Below, piece by piece: positions 6,627 through 43,523 of a stretch of DNA of 43,701 bases; within the stretch, counting starts at the first letter, position 1; each line of letters begins with the position of its first letter. The notes under the pieces are model-generated. The model worked only from the letters and a program-made list of their open reading frames with translations. It ran no database searches and was not told the origin of the DNA. Source of the DNA: an uncultured Ignavibacteriales bacterium (lineage in GTDB: Bacteria > Zixibacteria > MSB-5A5 > GN15 > FEB-12). A program made the translations under genes and the position numbers. Location of the stretch: contig CAYXJN010000006.1 of the NCBI GenBank assembly GCA_964464605.1, forward strand, positions 275,981-319,681. The letters run 5' to 3'.

Positions 6627-8675
6627 ATGGGGTCTATGTTCCAGCGCTCAGTGAAGGAAGTCAACGCGGAGTATCCCGCTGAAGACCGCTTTTTAGACAG
6701 TATTCAGCGAACAGTACGTGATACCTGTGTCGCAGCCGGTATGTCCCGCAAGGAAGCATCCGCAGTTCTGCTTGCAGTTGAAGAGGGAGCGACGAATATC
6801 ATTCGCCACGCATACCTGTATTCCAAGGGCACCATCCGCGTCCGTCTTGTTGTCTATGCAAACCAGATCGTTATTTCTCTTTTTGATACCGGCCGTTCCT
6901 TTCAGCCGGATATGTCCTCGCCGATTAATTTAGACCGCTTGGTTGAGTCAGGCCGCAAGGGAGGGCTTGGTTTTTACATGATGCGCAAGATCATGGATTC
7001 GGTGGAGTATATCAGCACCGCCGATTTCAACGAACTACGCATGATCAAGCGGCTGCAAAAACCGAAAGATGCCGCGCTGCCTTTGTTCAGCCGCTTCTCA
7101 ACGCTGCGCGCCAAGTTTTCACTATTCACGTTTCTTGTCGTGTTGGTCATCGTCGGCGGTTCCTACTACTACATTGACCGTCGCACCCGCTCGCTGCTGG
7201 GAGAACGGCTTGAGCAAACCGTCATTGCTCTGGCGAACACGGTAGCGGATCAGGCCGCCGGATATATGATTAACAGCCGCTCCGACGTGGAATTCGATGA
7301 ACTAATCGTTTCCTATCTTCGCGCCAATCCGGAATTGCGCTCGGTCATTATTGTCGATTCGACTTCATTGATCGTCGCTCACTCGCAGGATATTCGCAAT
7401 ATTCGCAAACCGCTCATTGTTCCCCGGCAGCTCAATCCGAATATCCGCAACATGGCGCAGGTTTTCGATTCCGGACAGCAGGTGTTCAACTATCTCATCG
7501 TGCCGGTCAACGCCGGCCTTCGTGAGATGGGAGAGGTGCATATTGTCTATTCAACCGGACTCATTACCGAAGAAATCGCCGAACAGCGCAGCCGGGTTGT
7601 TTATCTCACTTTACTTTGGTTGGGTGTCGGTATCGTTTCGATTTATTTGCTCTCTAATTATTTCGTCGGCCCGATTGCCCGCATTACCGGGCGAATTCGC
7701 CGCTTTGCTTCCGGTGACATGGAAACCGAACTGCCGCTTGAAGGAGCTGAAGAGTTTTTTGAAATTTCAAAAGCCTTCAATGAAATGATGACCCGTGTCA
7801 ATCAGGACCGAAAAACTATCGCCGCCCGTGAAAAGATGGCCAAAGAGGTTGAAGTCGCGTCCCATATTCAAAAAACACTGCTTCCATCCAAGCTCCCTAA
7901 CATCACGGGGCTCGATGTCGACGCCTATTACCGGGCGGCATCGATTGTCGGCGGCGATTTGTACGATATTTTCCAGATCGGCCCGTCCCGGTATTGTATG
8001 ACGGTTGCCGATGTCTCCGGAAAAGGGGTGCCGGCATCGTTAGTTATGTCGATGCTTCGCACCGTTATCCAGATTCAAGCGGAGGGGAGTGAATCGGCCC
8101 GCGATATTTTAGTAAAAGTTAACAGTTATATTGAGCGCAATATCCCGCCCGGCATGTTCGTGACGGTGTTGATGATCGTTTACGATTCCGAACACTCGCA
8201 CCTGTCTTGTGTTTCCGCCGGTCATACGCCGCTGTTATTTTATCGGGTAGCGACGCGAAGTTTGGCACAAATCAATCCGGCAGGTATGCCTATTGGTATG
8301 CCGGTTACGCTGGGTGAAGGATTCGCCGGAAAACTGGAGGAATTCACAGCTATTTTGGAAGAGGGGGATCTGTTCTTTGCTTTTACCGACGGTGTAACCG
8401 AAGCGGGTAACCGCGCCGGAGAACAATATGGCCTGAATCGGCTGGAAGCATTTTTCAAAAAATACTTGTCGGAACAAAAAGAAGTGAATGCGAACATGCT
8501 CAGTATCGAATTATTGAAAGATATTGATGCCTTTACCGGCTCTGCCAATCCCGCTGATGATTTGACGTTCATTGTCGCCAGTCGCACCGAGCATCGCACT
8601 GCAAAAACGCCGGAAAAAGCATCGCTCGATTTGCCGGTTATTCAGGTTCCGGAGCAAAAAACTGAGGCTGAATAA
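6627..8675 (+). CDS. Membrane protein: RsbW-like HATPase Ser kinase - TM - periplasmic sensor - TM - HAMP - SpoIIE/PP2C phosphatase
   Basis: Kinase motifs LAVEEGATNIIRHAY, DTG, GGLGFYMM; two hydrophobic segments; HAMP (PIARIT...EISKAFNEM); PP2C motifs VGGDLYD, VADVSGKG, SAGH, FTDGVTE, DDLT. Start may be ATG 6636. Confidence 0.9.
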   Translation: MGSMFQRSVKEVNAEYPAEDRFLDSIQRTVRDTCVAAGMSRKEASAVLLAVEEGATNIIRHAYLYSKGTIRVRLVVYANQIVISLFDTGRSFQPDMSSPINLDRLVESGRKGGLGFYMMRKIMDSVEYISTADFNELRMIKRLQKPKDAALPLFSRFSTLRAKFSLFTFLVVLVIVGGSYYYIDRRTRSLLGERLEQTVIALANTVADQAAGYMINSRSDVEFDELIVSYLRANPELRSVIIVDSTSLIVAHSQDIRNIRKPLIVPRQLNPNIRNMAQVFDSGQQVFNYLIVPVNAGLREMGEVHIVYSTGLITEEIAEQRSRVVYLTLLWLGVGIVSIYLLSNYFVGPIARITGRIRRFASGDMETELPLEGAEEFFEISKAFNEMMTRVNQDRKTIAAREKMAKEVEVASHIQKTLLPSKLPNITGLDVDAYYRAASIVGGDLYDIFQIGPSRYCMTVADVSGKGVPASLVMSMLRTVIQIQAEGSESARDILVKVNSYIERNIPPGMFVTVLMIVYDSEHSHLSCVSAGHTPLLFYRVATRSLAQINPAGMPIGMPVTLGEGFAGKLEEFTAILEEGDLFFAFTDGVTEAGNRAGEQYGLNRLEAFFKKYLSEQKEVNANMLSIELLKDIDAFTGSANPADDLTFIVASRTEHRTAKTPEKASLDLPVIQVPEQKTEAE

Positions 8676-8698
8676 CCGTTTCTTTTTTCCAATTTTTC

Positions 8699-8727
8699 TT
8701 GCCTTGTCAGATAACGTTACGTATTTT
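8699..8727 (+). promoter_or_regulatory. Candidate sigma70 promoter for the STAS gene
   Basis: TTGCCT-N17-TATTTT in the AT-rich intergenic gap. Confidence 0.3.
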
Positions 8728-8765
8728 TTTACTATAGCACGTATAGTGTGAGGGAATTTTTCATC

Positions 8766-9152
8766 GTGGATAACATCAGTATATCTCTGTCTGAAGGAAA
8801 TCAGGAAGACGTCTCGGAAATCCGGGTCGATGGCGTTATTGATACTATCACCGCCAGCGAACTTGAGCAAGTTATCGATTCCCTGATGCGCCGTCAGCGC
8901 TACAAAATTCTCATAGACTTAGCCGGAGTCGATTATATCTCTTCGGCGGGGTGGGGAATTTTTATTTCGCACATCAAAGATGTCCGTGCCAATCGCGGCG
9001 ATATCAAGCTGGCCAATATGATTCCGAATGTTCGCGAGATATACCAGTTGCTTGAATTCGATAATGTTTTGAAAAGTTACGGTTCAATTGATGATGCCCG
9101 CCGGGATTTCGGCGGTTCCGAAAAAGTTGAGCAAAAAAAAAAGAACCGATAG
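8766..9152 (+). CDS. STAS-domain anti-sigma-factor antagonist (RsbV/SpoIIAA-like), 128 aa
   Basis: RVDGVIDT, IDLAGVDYISSAGWG (phosphoacceptor Ser motif), GDIKLAN; GTG 8766 follows SD GAGGGA. Confidence 0.9.
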   Translation: MDNISISLSEGNQEDVSEIRVDGVIDTITASELEQVIDSLMRRQRYKILIDLAGVDYISSAGWGIFISHIKDVRANRGDIKLANMIPNVREIYQLLEFDNVLKSYGSIDDARRDFGGSEKVEQKKKNR

Positions 9153-9436
9153 TAAGTAATGTCACGCTCATGGAACCGGTAATGGCTCCGTCATACTCCC
9201 ATTCACAGACTATCCTGCAAACGCCGGCAACGGTGTATCAGGCGGCATCGTTCGAAGACGCGGTCCTGCGATTGGTAAAACATGACCCGTTTGCCACTAT
9301 CGGAGAACTGGCCGATGAACTCTCGCAGTCCGGTCAGTATGAAAAGACAGGCTGGTGGCCGGTTTTTTTGGTTCTCCGCCGTCACAGTCTTGTAAGAAAG
9401 AGGTCCCGGTTCAATTTCGCCCGGGGGCGACGGTAG
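9131..9436 (+). CDS. Helix-turn-helix-like domain, probably expressed as a -1 extension of the STAS protein rather than from ATG 9170
   Basis: The -1 frame is open from 9131 to TAG 9434-9436; no SD before ATG 9170 or 9182; FEDAVLRLVKHDPFATIGELADEL...VFLVLRRHSL resembles a three-helix HTH. Confidence 0.6.
   Translation, partial: AKKKEPIVSNVTLMEPVMAPSYSHSQTILQTPATVYQAASFEDAVLRLVKHDPFATIGELADELSQSGQYEKTGWWPVFLVLRRHSLVRKRSRFNFARGRR
9133..9143 (+). other. Slippery site: A10 run ending in in-frame A_AAA_AAG
   Basis: Frame-0 codons CAA AAA AAA AAG AAC CGA TAG; heptamer 9137-9143 is in correct phase for -1 tandem slippage. Confidence 0.6.
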
Positions 9437-9450
9437 TAAAACGATATGGT

Positions 9451-9477
9451 TCAGAACACGGCTTCTGACGCCGATAC
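9451..9477 (+). promoter_or_regulatory. Candidate sigma28-family promoter 2
   Basis: TCAG-N15-GCCGATAC upstream of the GGDEF gene. Confidence 0.5.
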
Positions 9478-9498
9478 GAACGGCGTACGGGGCAATGT

Positions 9499-11112
9499 AT
9501 GCAGTTAACAGCGGTCGCGCTTATCATCGCTATTTTAGCCGGGGCATCGGCATTAGTCTGGCTGTTCTACTACACCTGGAAACAACGGGAAGCTGCCTTA
9601 CATGCGGAACCGTTACCGCAGCTATTACGACGCGGCACACAGGGAAGGAATACCGCGCAAGTAATACCGGAATTTTCCGCTTTGCTGGTTTCTGCGCTTT
9701 CATTGGACCAGCTCTGGTATTTCGAGTTCCGAAAAGAACAGCTCATACTCAGACACAGCCATTCCGGAAAATCGGGAACCGAATTTCCCGAATGGAAAAC
9801 ATCCAAAGCATTAGAAGAACTGCTTGATGCCGAATATGATCTATTCCCGGTCGATGCATTGACGCCCCATATTTCAGAAAATTTCAAAGATTCGATTCGC
9901 ACAAAAAATATCAGCTGGTGGCTTCCGGTATTTTCCGAAGGGACAGTTCATGGTCTTTTTTTGCTGCCGCTTACTTCTTTACCGCAGGACGCGCCCAAAC
10001 GTCAAGCATCGCTGATTGCGCAGTTGTTATCCCTTGTCTATCGGGCGGAAGCAGTCCCGCCTGTTAAAACCGCAACCTCACCGGATGATAGACGGGTGGT
10101 GGCTTCAACCAGACAGCCGCTTGAAATGGGTGATTCGTTAACACCGAATATGTTCAAGCTCGCTCTCAGGCGCGGCCCTGAATCAGTGGTTCCGGTGCTT
10201 ATTAATACCTTGAAAAAGGATTTAGGGGTGGAACAGCTTTCATTGTTGTTCGAGCATGAAAATAAAGAACGAGTCTGGAACAACAGCGGCGATTCCGATG
10301 CCGTTTCGAATCAGATGCTGCTGCCGCGTATTCTTGGCGCGCTTTCGAAATCACAGCAGGGTGCAAACATCTCCGAATTATCCAGGCGGGACCCGGAGCT
10401 TTCCGGCTGGGTGAATGAGATGAACAAACAGGGGTATAGCTGGGCAGTACCATTTTCAATCAGCCAGGAACAGAAGGGTGTGCTATTAGGCAGCGATACG
10501 CCGTCAGTCGCGGGAGCGCAGGAGCGTTTTAGCCGCGCGGCCGGACAAGCCGCGCATATTGTCGAAGTCGCCGAGTATTCACGTCAGCTGCATGAAATGT
10601 CCTATACCGATGCGCTTACGGGTCTGGCGAATCATCGCTATTTGATGCGCCGTCTTGACGAAGAAATCAGCCGCGCCCGCCGCTATCGCCGTCAGTTAGC
10701 CTTGATCATGTTCGATGTCGATGACCTGAAATCGATGAACGACGCTAACGGGCACCTTGCCGGAGACGAACTGCTCAAGCAGATTGCCGCCAAAGTTCGC
10801 AACTGTATCCGGGGAATTGATCTTTTGGCCCGGTACGGTGGGGATGAATTTTGTATTGTCATGCCGGAAGCGGACGAGCAGACTTGCTATCGCTTTATGG
10901 AGCGGCTTCACCGGGATTTAGCGGTAACCGCAATCCAAGTCGAGGGTGTTGCCAATCCGTACCCAGCCTCTATCTCTCAAGGTGGGGCGATTTTCCCCAC
11001 CGCCGGCGAGGATAGCCGGACGCTCTTGCATCATGCCGATATGGCGATGATTAAGGCAAAAAATGCCGGTCGAAACTCCTATTTGCTCTATTCGGCCGAT
11101 TTACACGCGTAA
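9499..11112 (+). CDS. Membrane-anchored diguanylate cyclase with degenerate GAF-like region
   Basis: N-terminal TM; TDALTGLAN, DVDDLKSMND..GH..GD, intact RYGGDEF with RxxD I-site (RGID). Confidence 0.9.
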   Translation: MQLTAVALIIAILAGASALVWLFYYTWKQREAALHAEPLPQLLRRGTQGRNTAQVIPEFSALLVSALSLDQLWYFEFRKEQLILRHSHSGKSGTEFPEWKTSKALEELLDAEYDLFPVDALTPHISENFKDSIRTKNISWWLPVFSEGTVHGLFLLPLTSLPQDAPKRQASLIAQLLSLVYRAEAVPPVKTATSPDDRRVVASTRQPLEMGDSLTPNMFKLALRRGPESVVPVLINTLKKDLGVEQLSLLFEHENKERVWNNSGDSDAVSNQMLLPRILGALSKSQQGANISELSRRDPELSGWVNEMNKQGYSWAVPFSISQEQKGVLLGSDTPSVAGAQERFSRAAGQAAHIVEVAEYSRQLHEMSYTDALTGLANHRYLMRRLDEEISRARRYRRQLALIMFDVDDLKSMNDANGHLAGDELLKQIAAKVRNCIRGIDLLARYGGDEFCIVMPEADEQTCYRFMERLHRDLAVTAIQVEGVANPYPASISQGGAIFPTAGEDSRTLLHHADMAMIKAKNAGRNSYLLYSADLHA

Positions 11113-40683: not shown

Positions 40684-41295
40684 CTAAGCGAACTGTCGAA
40701 TCAGCCCGACTACTTTTCCGGCGATACGAAATTCCGGAGATGCCGCATTCACGACAATAGGCTTGAAGGCATCATTTTCCGGCTGGAGGATTATCTGTTT
40801 GCCGCTCGGCATATACCGTTTCACTGTTGCCTCGCCGCCGACTAAAGCCACAACGATATCACCCTTTTGGGCGGTCTCCTGTTTTCTTACGATGACGATA
40901 TCCCCATCATAAATTCCGGCATCCCGCATCGAATCACCGGTAACCTGTAATGAAAAGCTGTCCCCTTTGGGTAGGAAAGACTGATCTAACACCAATTCGG
41001 TTTCCCTGTTTTCAATCGCATCAATAGGTACGCCGGCCGGCACAGAGCCGACTAAAGGAATGCGTCGAACCGGAGTTCGCTGGCTTTTTGGAAATTGAAG
41101 TCCACGAGCAAGATAGTCATCTTTTCTTAAGTATCCCTTTCGGATAAGTGAGGAAAGATGTTGGTGTACTCCGTTAGTTGAAGTTATACCGAAAGCCCGG
41201 CCGATTTCCCGAAGGGTCGGCGCCGTTCCACGCTCATCGAGACTTTGACGTATATACTCTAAAATTTGACGTTGTCGTTCGGTCAATTGACTCAA
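40684..41295 (-). CDS. lexA: SOS repressor LexA
   Basis: LTERQRQIL, PTLREIG, VPAG cleavage site, GDSM (catalytic Ser), ATVK (catalytic Lys); TTG start with GGAG. Confidence 0.96.
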   Translation of the reverse strand: MSQLTERQRQILEYIRQSLDERGTAPTLREIGRAFGITSTNGVHQHLSSLIRKGYLRKDDYLARGLQFPKSQRTPVRRIPLVGSVPAGVPIDAIENRETELVLDQSFLPKGDSFSLQVTGDSMRDAGIYDGDIVIVRKQETAQKGDIVVALVGGEATVKRYMPSGKQIILQPENDAFKPIVVNAASPEFRIAGKVVGLIRQFA

Positions 41296-41377: not shown

Positions 41378-41409
41378 AAAAAAAAACGGCGAATGTATTC
41401 GCCGTTTTT
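41378..41409 (-). terminator. Intrinsic terminator after the EF-G gene
   Basis: AAAAACGGCGAA-tgta-TTCGCCGTTTTT with a 9-T tail on the minus strand. Confidence 0.88.
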
Positions 41410-41429: not shown

Positions 41430-43523
41430 TTAGTGCTCCAGTTGGGCTGCTTCCCGCAAGTGGCGCGTTTCCTCGATAATCTTCTGAGCAACTTCGTGCG
41501 GAACCTCTTCGTAGTGCGAGAAGGTCATTGTATACACGCCTTGTCCCTGTGTCATTGACCGCAGATCGACGGCGTATTGATACAATTCCGCCTGGGGCAC
41601 GGTAGCACGGATAATCTGATCAGAGCCGTCAGGGTCCATACCGGCGATTCGACCGCGACGGGAGGAAAGATCCCCCATGACATCACCGGCATAATCTTCC
41701 GGAACATGTATTTCGACTGAATAAATCGGTTCAAGGATTACCGGTTTGCAGTTCATAAATCCTTCTTTAAAGGCCATCAATCCGGCGATTTTGAACGCCA
41801 TATCGGAGGAGTCGACATCATGGTAGGAACCATAGAACAGAGCAACGCGTACATCGACTACCGGTGCATGAGCCAGGCCGCCATGTAGCATCTGCTCGAC
41901 CACACCTTTTTCAACGGCCGGTATATATTTAGCTGGAATCGCGCCACCGGTAACTTCGTTTAGAAATTCAAACCCACCACCACGCTTGTTCGGTTCGATA
42001 CGAATATGTACATCGCCGAATTGTCCCCGTCCGCCCGATTGTTTTTTGTGGCGGTAATGATGTTCAGTTTTTGAGGTGATAGTTTCACGATAAGGGATTT
42101 TCGGTTTGGTAAGTTCGACATCGACACCAAACCGTTTCTTCAATTTATCGACAAGGATTTCAATATGGGTTGAACCTTGTCCCCAAAGTACCATCTGATG
42201 AAGCGCCGGGTCGGATATTAGTTTGAAGCTTGGATCCTCTTCATGCAGTTTATGCAGCCCGGTTCCGATTTTTTCCTCATCCCCTTTATTCTTTGGCTTG
42301 AGCGCGACGTCCATAACCGGATTCGGCAACTTCGGCGGCGCTATCGTAACGCCAAACGCGGCATCCGTCAGAGTATTTCCGGTATGCGTGTTTTTTAGTT
42401 TAACCAGAACACCCATATCTCCGGCCGTCGCTGCCGGCAGATCGATTCGGTTTTTTCCCTGCATAGTATAGACCTGTGAGGCGCGCTCTTGTACTTCCGT
42501 TGCCTGATTTTTTAGATCTATACCCTGTTTAATTGTTCCCTGAAATACGCGGAAGTAGGACATTTCACCAAGGTGACCTTCCGAGGCTGTTTTGAAAATA
42601 TAGGCAACGGTTGGGGCAGAGGAGTCGACTTTGAGTTCGACTTCATTTGTCGTTCCGGTTTTCAATCCTTTCGGATTCCCCATCTCTTTCGGTGAGGGGA
42701 GATATTCGACGATAAAATCCAACAATACTAAGCTGCCAACGCCGCGTAAGGCGGAGCCAAAAAAGACCGGATACAAACGACCAGTGTCGATACCGAGCGC
42801 GAGTCCTTTATGAAATTCATCTTCGGTGAGCGTGCCTTCGGAAAAGAATTTTTCGATGAGTGTGTCGTCCGCTTCGGCTGCTACTTCGACCAGTTTTTCC
42901 CGCTCAGCTTCGGCAATCGCTTTCATGTCGGCGGGAATCGGAATTTCCGAACGTTTACCGTCCTTTTCGAAGGTGTAGGCTTTCATGTGCAGTAAATCGA
43001 TAAGGCCGGTGAATTTGTCCCCTTCGCCGATCGGTATTTCTACTGCGACTGCCTGCTTGCCGAAGGCTTCCTTTAATGATTCAAGGTTGGTCTGCCATTT
43101 GACATTTTCCATTTCCATCTTGTTCACGAAAAAGAAATGGGCGAGGTTGAATGATTCAAGCGCCTTCCACTGCAGCTTGGTGCCGATTTCGACGCCGGCC
43201 GTTCCGTTGATAATGAATCCGACAGATTCGACCACGCGCGCGCAGTTCATCAATTCGCCTGCAAAATCAAGATGTCCCGGGCAATCGAGAATATTCAGTT
43301 TGACGTTTTGCCATTCACAGGCTAAAAGAGATGCGCTGATACTGGTTTTGCGGGCTATTTCATAATCATGAAAGTCTAAAAGGGAGGATCCCTCGTCAAC
43401 TCGTCCGATTCGTGTGGTAACTCCGGTGTGGAATGCGAAGGTATCGGCTAAACTCGTTTTGCCGCTGCTTCGTTGTCCGGCAAGGCAGACATTGCGGATT
43501 TTGTCGGTTGCATATTCTTTCAC
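41430..43523 (-). CDS. fusA: Elongation factor G paralog (EF-G2/EFG II), stand-alone
   Basis: Full five-domain EF-G layout (EEDPSF, YRETI, KKQSGGRGQFG, YHDVDSS, LRSMTQG) with divergent G motifs; not in an rpsL-rpsG-fusA-tuf context. Confidence 0.92.
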   Translation of the reverse strand: MKEYATDKIRNVCLAGQRSSGKTSLADTFAFHTGVTTRIGRVDEGSSLLDFHDYEIARKTSISASLLACEWQNVKLNILDCPGHLDFAGELMNCARVVESVGFIINGTAGVEIGTKLQWKALESFNLAHFFFVNKMEMENVKWQTNLESLKEAFGKQAVAVEIPIGEGDKFTGLIDLLHMKAYTFEKDGKRSEIPIPADMKAIAEAEREKLVEVAAEADDTLIEKFFSEGTLTEDEFHKGLALGIDTGRLYPVFFGSALRGVGSLVLLDFIVEYLPSPKEMGNPKGLKTGTTNEVELKVDSSAPTVAYIFKTASEGHLGEMSYFRVFQGTIKQGIDLKNQATEVQERASQVYTMQGKNRIDLPAATAGDMGVLVKLKNTHTGNTLTDAAFGVTIAPPKLPNPVMDVALKPKNKGDEEKIGTGLHKLHEEDPSFKLISDPALHQMVLWGQGSTHIEILVDKLKKRFGVDVELTKPKIPYRETITSKTEHHYRHKKQSGGRGQFGDVHIRIEPNKRGGGFEFLNEVTGGAIPAKYIPAVEKGVVEQMLHGGLAHAPVVDVRVALFYGSYHDVDSSDMAFKIAGLMAFKEGFMNCKPVILEPIYSVEIHVPEDYAGDVMGDLSSRRGRIAGMDPDGSDQIIRATVPQAELYQYAVDLRSMTQGQGVYTMTFSHYEEVPHEVAQKIIEETRHLREAAQLEH

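Follow-up and report, generated by a model that had tools for sequence, protein, structure and literature searches.

Few bacterial chromosomal genes that use programmed transcriptional slippage or -1 ribosomal frameshifting are known to us: dnaX, mxiE and some others, beside those of mobile elements and phages. Sites of the Escherichia coli dnaX type and of IS3-family orfAB use stimulators, namely an upstream Shine-Dalgarno (SD)-like element and a downstream hairpin or pseudoknot. In Thermus thermophilus dnaX, RNA polymerase slips on a run of nine A residues (A9), which yields tau and gamma (PMC5009743). In Chlorobi, dnaX consists of two open reading frames (ORFs) with ten A residues (A10) between them; tau needs recoding there, and in other orthologues the two parts share one frame (Antonov et al. 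2013, PMC3711429). In Shigella flexneri mxiE, slippage on T9 joins two ORFs to give a transcription activator (PMC1088944). Slippage becomes efficient at runs of 9, and such runs are selected against in many genomes (PMC5009743, PMC1088944). Here we describe a STAS-domain gene in 43,701 nucleotides (nt) of DNA, hereafter the window, from an uncultured bacterium of the GTDB phylum Zixibacteria (GenBank assembly GCA_964464605.1, contig CAYXJN010000006.1, positions 275,981 to 319,681 of the forward strand). At the end of the STAS domain, an A10 run leads into a second coding region in the -1 frame.

We consider it likely, from comparison of related loci, that this one gene yields two proteins by way of a programmed slippery site. 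Read in the standard way, it would encode a 128-amino-acid (aa) STAS protein. At A10, a fraction of expression events would enter the -1 frame and give a 223-aa protein made of the STAS domain, a linker and a helix-turn-helix (HTH)-like C-terminal domain (CTD). A preliminary description of this DNA had proposed these two products from one slippery A-run and a new recoded gene family, and the comparative evidence supports that proposal. The mechanism would be of a known kind, and the gene family newly recoded. Literature on transcriptional slippage or frameshifting together with STAS, anti-sigma factor antagonists, partner switching or Zixibacteria, as far as screened by title and abstract, yielded no such case. 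Nor is there one in the excerpts consulted of the Atkins 2016 review (PMC5009743) or of Antonov 2013 (PMC3711429).

Organisation of the STAS gene and its two predicted products

The STAS ORF occupies 8766-9152 on the plus strand (zero frame). It starts at GTG 8766, about 10 nt downstream of a GAGG motif and at the position where the starts of homologues align, and it ends at TAG 9150-9152; its 128-aa product would be the short isoform. The zero frame closes with GAG CAA AAA AAA AAG AAC CGA TAG, so that the STAS domain is followed by KKK, encoded by the run, and by a two-codon tail (NR) before the stop. The A10 homopolymer itself, the candidate recoding site, lies at 9133-9142 (plus strand). 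The heptamer A_AAA_AAG (9137-9143) is in phase with the zero frame, two codons ahead of the stop. The -1 frame is shut by TGA 9128-9130 and open at 9131-9436, where it reads AKKKEPIVSNVTLMEPVMAPS... and stops at TAG 9434-9436. Its extension beyond the run (9143-9436, plus strand) comprises 97 codons and the TAG, and joined to the STAS domain it would form the 223-aa long isoform, with the predicted junction ...VEQKKKEPIVSNV.... Within this extension, a disordered linker that carries the conserved motif xxxVT(K/R)LTVVD is followed by a basic, four-helix HTH-like domain at about 9224-9424. Two ATG codons (9170 and 9182) occur in the -1 frame, neither of them preceded by an SD-like motif. What the preliminary description had said of the 128-aa STAS product, the run at 9133-9142, the in-phase heptamer and the TGA that closes the -1 frame holds, and it had rightly described the HTH-like domain as lacking an SD of its own.

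That description had also raised the possibility that the run is truly A11, which would make the gene a plain fusion. The stretch is contained wholly or partly in 20 public runs, all as contigs and none recorded as RNA. Positions 8700-9500 were covered by one contig per run in four runs from four studies, each with 0 differences, 0 gaps and A10; one of these assemblies may be the source of the window, and contigs mask rare variants. A10 is no assembly slip. The run is also unusual in its genome (2.8 Mb), where A/T runs reach length 10 only twice and length 9 in 11 places (13 of at least 9 in all). Because long A/T runs are rare genome-wide and this one is kept at the junction in 125 of 153 related loci, as shown in the next section, it stands above chance.

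The domain that both isoforms would share is clearly assigned. The STAS ORF matches Pfam STAS (PF01740; E = 8.4e-16, 58.1 bits, cut-off 22.6) and the NCBIfam anti-sigma-factor antagonist family TIGR00377 (63 bits, cut-off 53.45), while the SpoIIAA equivalog TIGR02886 was not reached (42.9 vs 114.75). Domains of this type are the substrates in partner-switching modules. The two serines of its DYISSAGWG motif are invariant, and we take this to be the phosphorylation site. In AlphaFold2 models of 40 natural in-frame fusions, residues 1-115 form a STAS domain predicted with confidence, residues 119-162 form a disordered linker (predicted local confidence, pLDDT, below 50), and the C-terminal part consists of four helices, most of their pLDDT values being around 90. 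For the CTD of the window (9134-9433), the same fold was predicted, with helices at residues 31-97 and pLDDT mostly around 80-92.

The nature of the CTD is less firmly settled. No curated HTH family matched it above cut-off, the best being PF01498 HTH_Tnp_Tc3_2 (E = 0.007, 17 bits vs 31.5). It had no NCBIfam match, and a Foldseek search against the PDB gave none at E <= 0.001. The top rows from VIA-align were the ArgR N-domain, Fur, PadR, the sigma-54 DNA-binding domain and Z-alpha. Their Z values (5.2-6.6) are ones that the tool itself rates as common. Searched against 1.84 billion representative proteins, a CTD profile found 107 at E <= 0.001. Most of these either have 56-153 aa and represent the CTD called as an ORF of its own or have 215-266 aa and are fusions, and the weakest matches (E 1e-4 to 1e-3) lie in proteins with HTH_32 or HTH_Tnp_Tc3_2 domains. 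On these models and matches, an HTH-like fold is plausible, not established.

Two further observations concern these domains. The linker motif VT(K/R)LTVVD (about 9152-9175, -1 frame), directly after KKK, is predicted to form a short beta strand with pLDDT of about 30. The strand is modelled, at low confidence, at residues 132-136 (TRLSV) of one in-frame fusion (L015), and it may dock on the STAS sheet or on a partner. Separately, a protein of 3274 aa (P0007) contains 36 stretches that match positions 45-80 of the CTD profile (E = 1.6e-58), and Pfam finds nothing meaningful in it. It may be a repeat protein built of a DPF...helix unit or a compositional artefact.

Conservation of the run and of the frame behind it

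The CTD was detected in 36 of 41 near relatives, in 102 of the 108 genomes of the window's family (f1) and, by profile, in 228 of 285 genomes of the phylum. Used as a query against genome contigs, the CTD found no relative, and the STAS protein found 37 loci. In all, 154 loci were examined, and 153 of them hold both domains (115 in a first set and 38 of 39 in a second). The CTD lies directly 3' of STAS on the same strand in every locus except L167, which begins at a contig end so that STAS is missing.

An A9-A11 run sits exactly at the STAS/CTD junction in 125 of the 153 Zixibacteria loci. Its length is A10 in 104 loci, A9 in 18 and A11 in 3; lengths of 7 or 8 do not occur. Of the run-bearing loci, 72 have the CTD in the -1 frame relative to STAS, 47 have it in frame and 6 have it in the +1 frame. 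The 28 loci that lack a run of at least 9 are all plain in-frame fusions, so an out-of-frame CTD was found in 78 of 125 loci with the run compared to 0 of 28 without it. Every locus of families f1 and f4 bears the run, and the run-less loci are those of families f2 and f3 together with 14 loci outside the order. Since every run-less locus is in frame, the ancestral gene was presumably a plain fusion, with the frame broken only where the run is present. Furthermore, the same run is found in the 47 in-frame and six +1 loci, and therefore the conserved feature is the slippery run and not the -1 arrangement. In the terms of the preliminary description, homologues do keep the A-run and carry a second ORF with no conserved start of its own. 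Its -1 arrangement is true of the window and of the 72 loci, but it is not what has been conserved.

Six of the 108 genomes of family f1 gave no CTD match by protein or profile (G006, G007, G054, G105, G111 and G122; completeness 56-96%). They include both genomes of genus g8, which are 95% and 96% complete; loss may be real in that genus.

We placed these states on a maximum-likelihood tree of 112 rows, from which three rows with truncated STAS were omitted and for which the run was excluded from the alignment. Presence of the run required one state change and the frame arrangement 18. Strongly supported branches alone force at least nine changes of the -1 label and at least six of the in-frame label. 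The -1 forms occur in clades. Near-identical genomes agree in arrangement, both in-frame ones (L063, L068, L072 and L081) and -1 ones (L056, L065, L067 and L089). The pairs L018/L082, L034/L036 and L075/L078 also agree, each within itself. Sister pairs can differ in run length alone, as in L012 (A9, -1) and L069 (A10, in frame), which have the same flanks. On this tree, the A-run appears to have arisen once, in the ancestor of two Zixibacteria families, and to have been kept since. The history would thus run from an ancestral plain fusion, through a single gain of the run, to repeated flips of the default product, which would be the fusion in in-frame forms and STAS alone in -1 forms.

Codon usage shows that the run is kept as nucleotides and not only as lysines. 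Elsewhere in these genes, lysine is encoded by AAA in 474 of 900 cases (53%), and 17% of third positions are A. In contrast, wherever the run occurs in an in-frame locus of the first set (33 loci), it is exactly A10. The first A of the run comes from TTA (10 loci), CTA (7), TCA (5), GTA (4) or CCA (3), and also from GGA, GAA or ATA. Because this preceding codon, of eight kinds, ends in A while its amino acid varies, the run appears to be selected at the nucleotide level. Taking codon usage and the tree together, conservation of the run exceeds what the protein requires, a mark of slippage sites.

The frame behind the run is likewise maintained where it is out of phase. When -1 products are translated conceptually, they can be aligned with the in-frame orthologues starting at the run and across KKK and VT(K/R)LTVVD, and this linker motif precedes any start codon in the CTD frame. 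The CTD frame is open for 94-105 codons in 67 of 67 -1 loci of the first set. Among 21 pairs in which both loci are -1, the ratio of nonsynonymous to synonymous substitution (dN/dS) of the CTD is 0.05-0.30 (median 0.14) for those pairs that allowed an estimate of dS; the STAS median is 0.05. Judged by these ratios, the CTD frame in -1 forms is under purifying selection. The other two frames stop soon after the run in every arrangement (medians of 4 and 10 codons, maximum 37), at positions that are fixed relative to the CTD frame.

Probable route of the proposed recoding and rival explanations

RNA polymerase slippage is the most likely route by these comparisons, and -1 ribosomal frameshifting possibly contributes. 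On the ten A's, the polymerase would add one extra A to the mRNA and thereby join the two parts; a lesser share of the long isoform would come from -1 ribosomal slippage on A_AAA_AAG, with the same product. An A/T run of at least 9 inside a coding sequence, as slippage needs, is present (A10), and the in-phase heptamer of dnaX/IS3-type frameshift sites is present as well. The single tRNA-Lys(UUU) associated with such sites, which pairs weakly with AAG, is not: according to Aragorn, the genome encodes tRNA-Lys(ttt) as well as tRNA-Lys(ctt). Two Lys tRNAs in Thermus have been tied to slippage instead of frameshifting (Atkins 2016 review, PMC5009743), and E. coli has a single tRNA-Lys (PMC5009743). 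Conserved frameshift stimulators, whether a downstream hairpin or pseudoknot or an upstream SD-like element, were not found, the SD-like element being judged by eye only. Across 106 loci, there was no conserved or unusually stable flank structure: the median z of predicted folds was 0.08 for the 45 nt upstream and -0.19 for the 60 nt downstream, with 9% and 7% of loci, respectively, below -2. Positions 8600-9600 gave no Rfam match at E <= 1. Polymerase slippage is therefore favoured, because run lengths are 9-11 and never 7 or 8, in line with the published threshold of 9 (PMC5009743, PMC1088944), conserved stimulators are lacking and both tRNA-Lys are present. The preliminary description had named both routes; slippage has gained from these data, and the dnaX-type ribosomal shift has lost ground on the same three points.

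The preliminary description had further pointed to a 7-bp hairpin, CCGCCGG-gatt-TCGGCGG, at 9098-9115 on the plus strand. The hairpin exists, with six Watson-Crick pairs and one G-U. However, it ends 17 nt before the run, it overlaps the codons of the conserved ARxDF motif, and it is not conserved as a structure. The 45 nt upstream of the run, which include it, fold at -12.2 kcal/mol with z = -0.49, which is not unusual. We rejected it as a stimulator and do not regard it as part of the mechanism.

The genome also carries a dnaX gene with a run of its own, outside the window. Its 560-aa ORF matches TIGR02397 with 437 bits and contains an in-frame A9 just after domain III (L196:2639-2647; G000:C9:126850-126858), with a stop two codons on in the -1 frame and nine codons on in the +1 frame. 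Among relatives, this genome included, a dnaX junction run is found in 22 of 30 loci (A9 in 6, A10 in 16). In these 22 loci tau runs on in frame for 155-199 codons, and the -1 frame stops within 4 codons in 21 of them. The run is absent from L212, L218, L220, L227 and L229-L232. It serves as a control from within the lineage: these bacteria already have the classic poly-A cassette, of the Thermus type, in the gene for which it is understood best.

Several explanations other than slippage deserve weighing. If the isoforms arose mainly by -1 ribosomal frameshifting, of the dnaX/IS3 type on A_AAA_AAG or A_AAA_AAA or by sliding on poly(A), polymerase slippage would be minor. The heptamer in phase in the window is compatible with this, as any run of 9-11 A contains one, and ribosome sliding on iterated AAA codons has been reported in E. 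coli (PMC4363877). Among the out-of-frame arrangements, -1 is the stable one (72 loci, grouped in clades) and +1 occurs at only six single tips; this agrees with a -1 ribosomal shift and equally with one extra A in the mRNA. However, a heptamer alone would suffice for the ribosome, yet runs of 7 or 8 occur in no locus, which favours slippage. The flanks have a median z near 0 and hold no Rfam frameshift element, and having both Lys tRNAs should lower ribosomal slippage on AAG. The same run length is also kept in the 47 in-frame loci and in the Thermus-type dnaX of these genomes. We therefore regard mainly ribosomal recoding as unlikely. A quite different proposal is a contingency locus at the DNA level, at which replication slippage would heritably toggle the fusion with no meaningful recoding by polymerase or ribosome. 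A10 runs are hypermutable, poly-A can act at the level of replication (PMC3711429, PMC1088944), and both the roughly 18 changes of frame arrangement on the tree and the sister loci that differ only in run length (L012 and L069) would fit. But near-identical genomes share one arrangement, and no polymorphism in run length was seen, with A10 in four of four assemblies from four studies (contigs mask rare variants). Moreover, -1 lineages old enough for dS to be saturated keep the CTD open under purifying selection, and therefore the CTD would be expressed in the supposed "off" state. Since the protein is also a cytoplasmic regulator and not a surface antigen, we find a contingency locus very unlikely.

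The remaining two explanations dispense with programmed recoding and with switching alike. Two ordinary neighbouring genes, with the CTD translated from an internal start or by termination-reinitiation and KKK serving as a lysine-rich linker, might be suggested by gene callers, which predict the CTD of the window as a separate 84-aa protein (P0002), by the many short library proteins (56-153 aa) that match the CTD, and by the window's ATG codons at 9170 and 9182. Start codons in the 73 out-of-frame loci of the first set speak against it. Ahead of the helical domain, the CTD frame lacks ATG, GTG and TTG altogether in 33 of these loci and lacks ATG in 59, and in 71 no start is accompanied by an SD-like motif. 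On these counts, separate initiation of the CTD is excluded at most of the loci. Any start codon comes only after the conserved linker motif, which itself can be aligned with the in-frame orthologues, all 28 run-less loci are in-frame fusions, and the A-only codon choice is not explained by a need for lysine in the protein, so that a pair of independent genes is highly improbable. The last explanation is artefact or decay, meaning a homopolymer error or a recent frameshift that has left the CTD as a pseudogene remnant. Homopolymers are error-prone, the genomes are metagenome-assembled and the six +1 forms are isolated tips. Nonetheless, A10 is identical in four assemblies, 72 loci share the -1 arrangement and do so in clades, and the CTD frame is open in every one of the 67 first-set loci of the -1 type, at dN/dS far below 1; we give this explanation almost no credence.

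Some points weigh against programmed slippage as we have presented it, and they should be kept in view. Anatomy, conservation and selection on the run and the -1 frame were read from the sequences; recoding, slippage, its route and its function we infer from them. Slippage and a -1 frameshift yield the same 223-aa protein, so sequence analysis cannot separate them. Homopolymer lengths may be wrong in some genomes, all of which are metagenome-assembled and some possibly from long reads. Errors or short-lived mutations may account for the six +1 forms, all of which are single tips. The repeated change of frame could alternatively reflect temporary tolerance of a lost fusion. The dN/dS values are rough since dS is saturated in many pairs, and the five pairs with dS below 1.3 give 0.125-0.287. 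Finally, the DNA-binding role proposed for the CTD draws on weak similarity (Pfam below cut-off, Z of at most 6.6).

Genomic context, proposed function and relation to known systems

The STAS gene lies between two signalling genes on the plus strand. Upstream, at 6627-8675, is a gene for a 682-aa sensor with an RsbW/SpoIIAB-like kinase domain, a HAMP domain and a PP2C domain (SpoIIE 1.6e-39, HATPase_c_2 1e-21, HAMP 1.4e-08); its single-Cache match is weak and sub-threshold (sCache_3_2 5.9e-4, 20.4 bits vs 28.4). Downstream, at 9499-11112, is a gene for a 537-aa protein whose C-terminal part is a GGDEF diguanylate cyclase domain (Pfam GGDEF 1.8e-44). Among 36 loci with wide flanks, a homologue of the sensor is present at 27 and one of the GGDEF gene at 30. 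Positions 6627-11112 can thus be described as a conserved module of three genes, kinase-HAMP-PP2C sensor, STAS(-A10-)CTD and GGDEF. Neither neighbour is found at six loci of family f3 (L008, L011, L016, L028, L031 and L035).

From its domains, the 682-aa protein is presumed to act on the STAS domain as both kinase and phosphatase. The neighbouring sensor would phosphorylate and dephosphorylate this domain, the long isoform would link its phosphorylation state to DNA binding, and the short isoform would compete for the same enzyme, with the run setting the ratio of the two. We suggest tentatively, as a possibility we would rather doubt than assume, that the A-run is the ratio setter of a partner-switching circuit in which sigma factors are bypassed. 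As a transcription factor, the long isoform would then have a DNA-binding domain that answers directly to the phosphorylation state of its own STAS domain, and the short one would be a decoy for the kinase/phosphatase; slippage frequency would be a regulatory input, and the set point would have been retuned at least nine times through a change of the default isoform. If so, slippage frequency could depend on growth rate, nucleotide pools or temperature. The locus would then be the first recoded signalling module of its kind and one of the rare slippage cassettes that occur in nature in all three frame arrangements.

Whatever the function, the wider implications of programmed slippage at this gene would be several. 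A regulatory gene family would join the few recoded bacterial chromosomal genes, with comparative support from 125 loci. The run has been kept while the default product appears to have flipped many times, a natural experiment that offers a handle on how isoform ratios are selected. Across two Zixibacteria families, the CTD is at present called as an orphan ORF of 56-153 aa or missed. The STAS-HTH-like fusion also suggests a direct path from partner switching to DNA.

We also inspected the other A/T runs of at least 9 among the 13 in the genome. Apart from this locus and dnaX, no further two-ORF case was apparent; the other runs that are clearly inside long ORFs are in frame or at the far C-terminal ends of genes. 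The window contains a second long run, A9 at 41378-41386, in the context ATG AAA AAA AAA CGG. It sits between minus-strand ORFs at 40684-41295 and 41430-43523, and it could be intergenic or mark where a small ORF begins. Another A9 (L154, G000:C3:313481-313489) ends an unknown ORF of 478 aa, with the stop directly after the run (A9 then GTAA). Runs of 9-10 A/T at extreme C-terminal gene ends are found in L155 (G000:C7:28123-28131) and L156 (G000:C6:212548-212557), in genes for a biotin carboxylase and a Vut_1 transporter, respectively. Slippage at the runs of L154, L155 and L156 would alter short tails only.

SpoIIAA and RsbV, anti-sigma-factor antagonists of partner switching, belong to the same STAS families (TIGR00377, PF01740), and the window has an adjoining gene with RsbW-like kinase and PP2C phosphatase domains. 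Unlike in those systems, kinase and phosphatase are predicted in one sensor protein, the STAS protein can carry a C-terminal HTH-like domain, and the gene appears to be recoded. With E. coli dnaX and IS3-family orfAB, the gene has in common the in-phase A_AAA_AAG heptamer and the logic of two products; it differs from them in having no conserved stimulator at the run and in a genome with two tRNA-Lys where E. coli has one. S. flexneri mxiE is likewise a cellular regulator with a run of at least 9, at which polymerase slippage is needed for the long, functional form (PMC1088944), as the long isoform of the window would need a shift. It differs in encoding an AraC-type activator that serves a type III secretion system. 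For the present gene, we propose a role of its own for the short product as well.

The proposed default products would mirror the two known arrangements of dnaX. With T. thermophilus dnaX (PMC5009743), the gene family shares a run of 9-10 A at a domain boundary behind a common N-terminal part, with the long product in one frame and stops near in both others, and the counterpart of that gene would be the 47 in-frame STAS-CTD loci. Unlike that gene, the present one encodes a signalling STAS protein and not a clamp-loader subunit, the default product in the window would be the short one, and slippage is deduced here from comparison. To the two-ORF dnaX of Chlorobi would correspond the window and the 72 -1 loci. 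The difference is that another gene family is involved and that, within one bacterial family, three frame arrangements coexist and appear to flip repeatedly.

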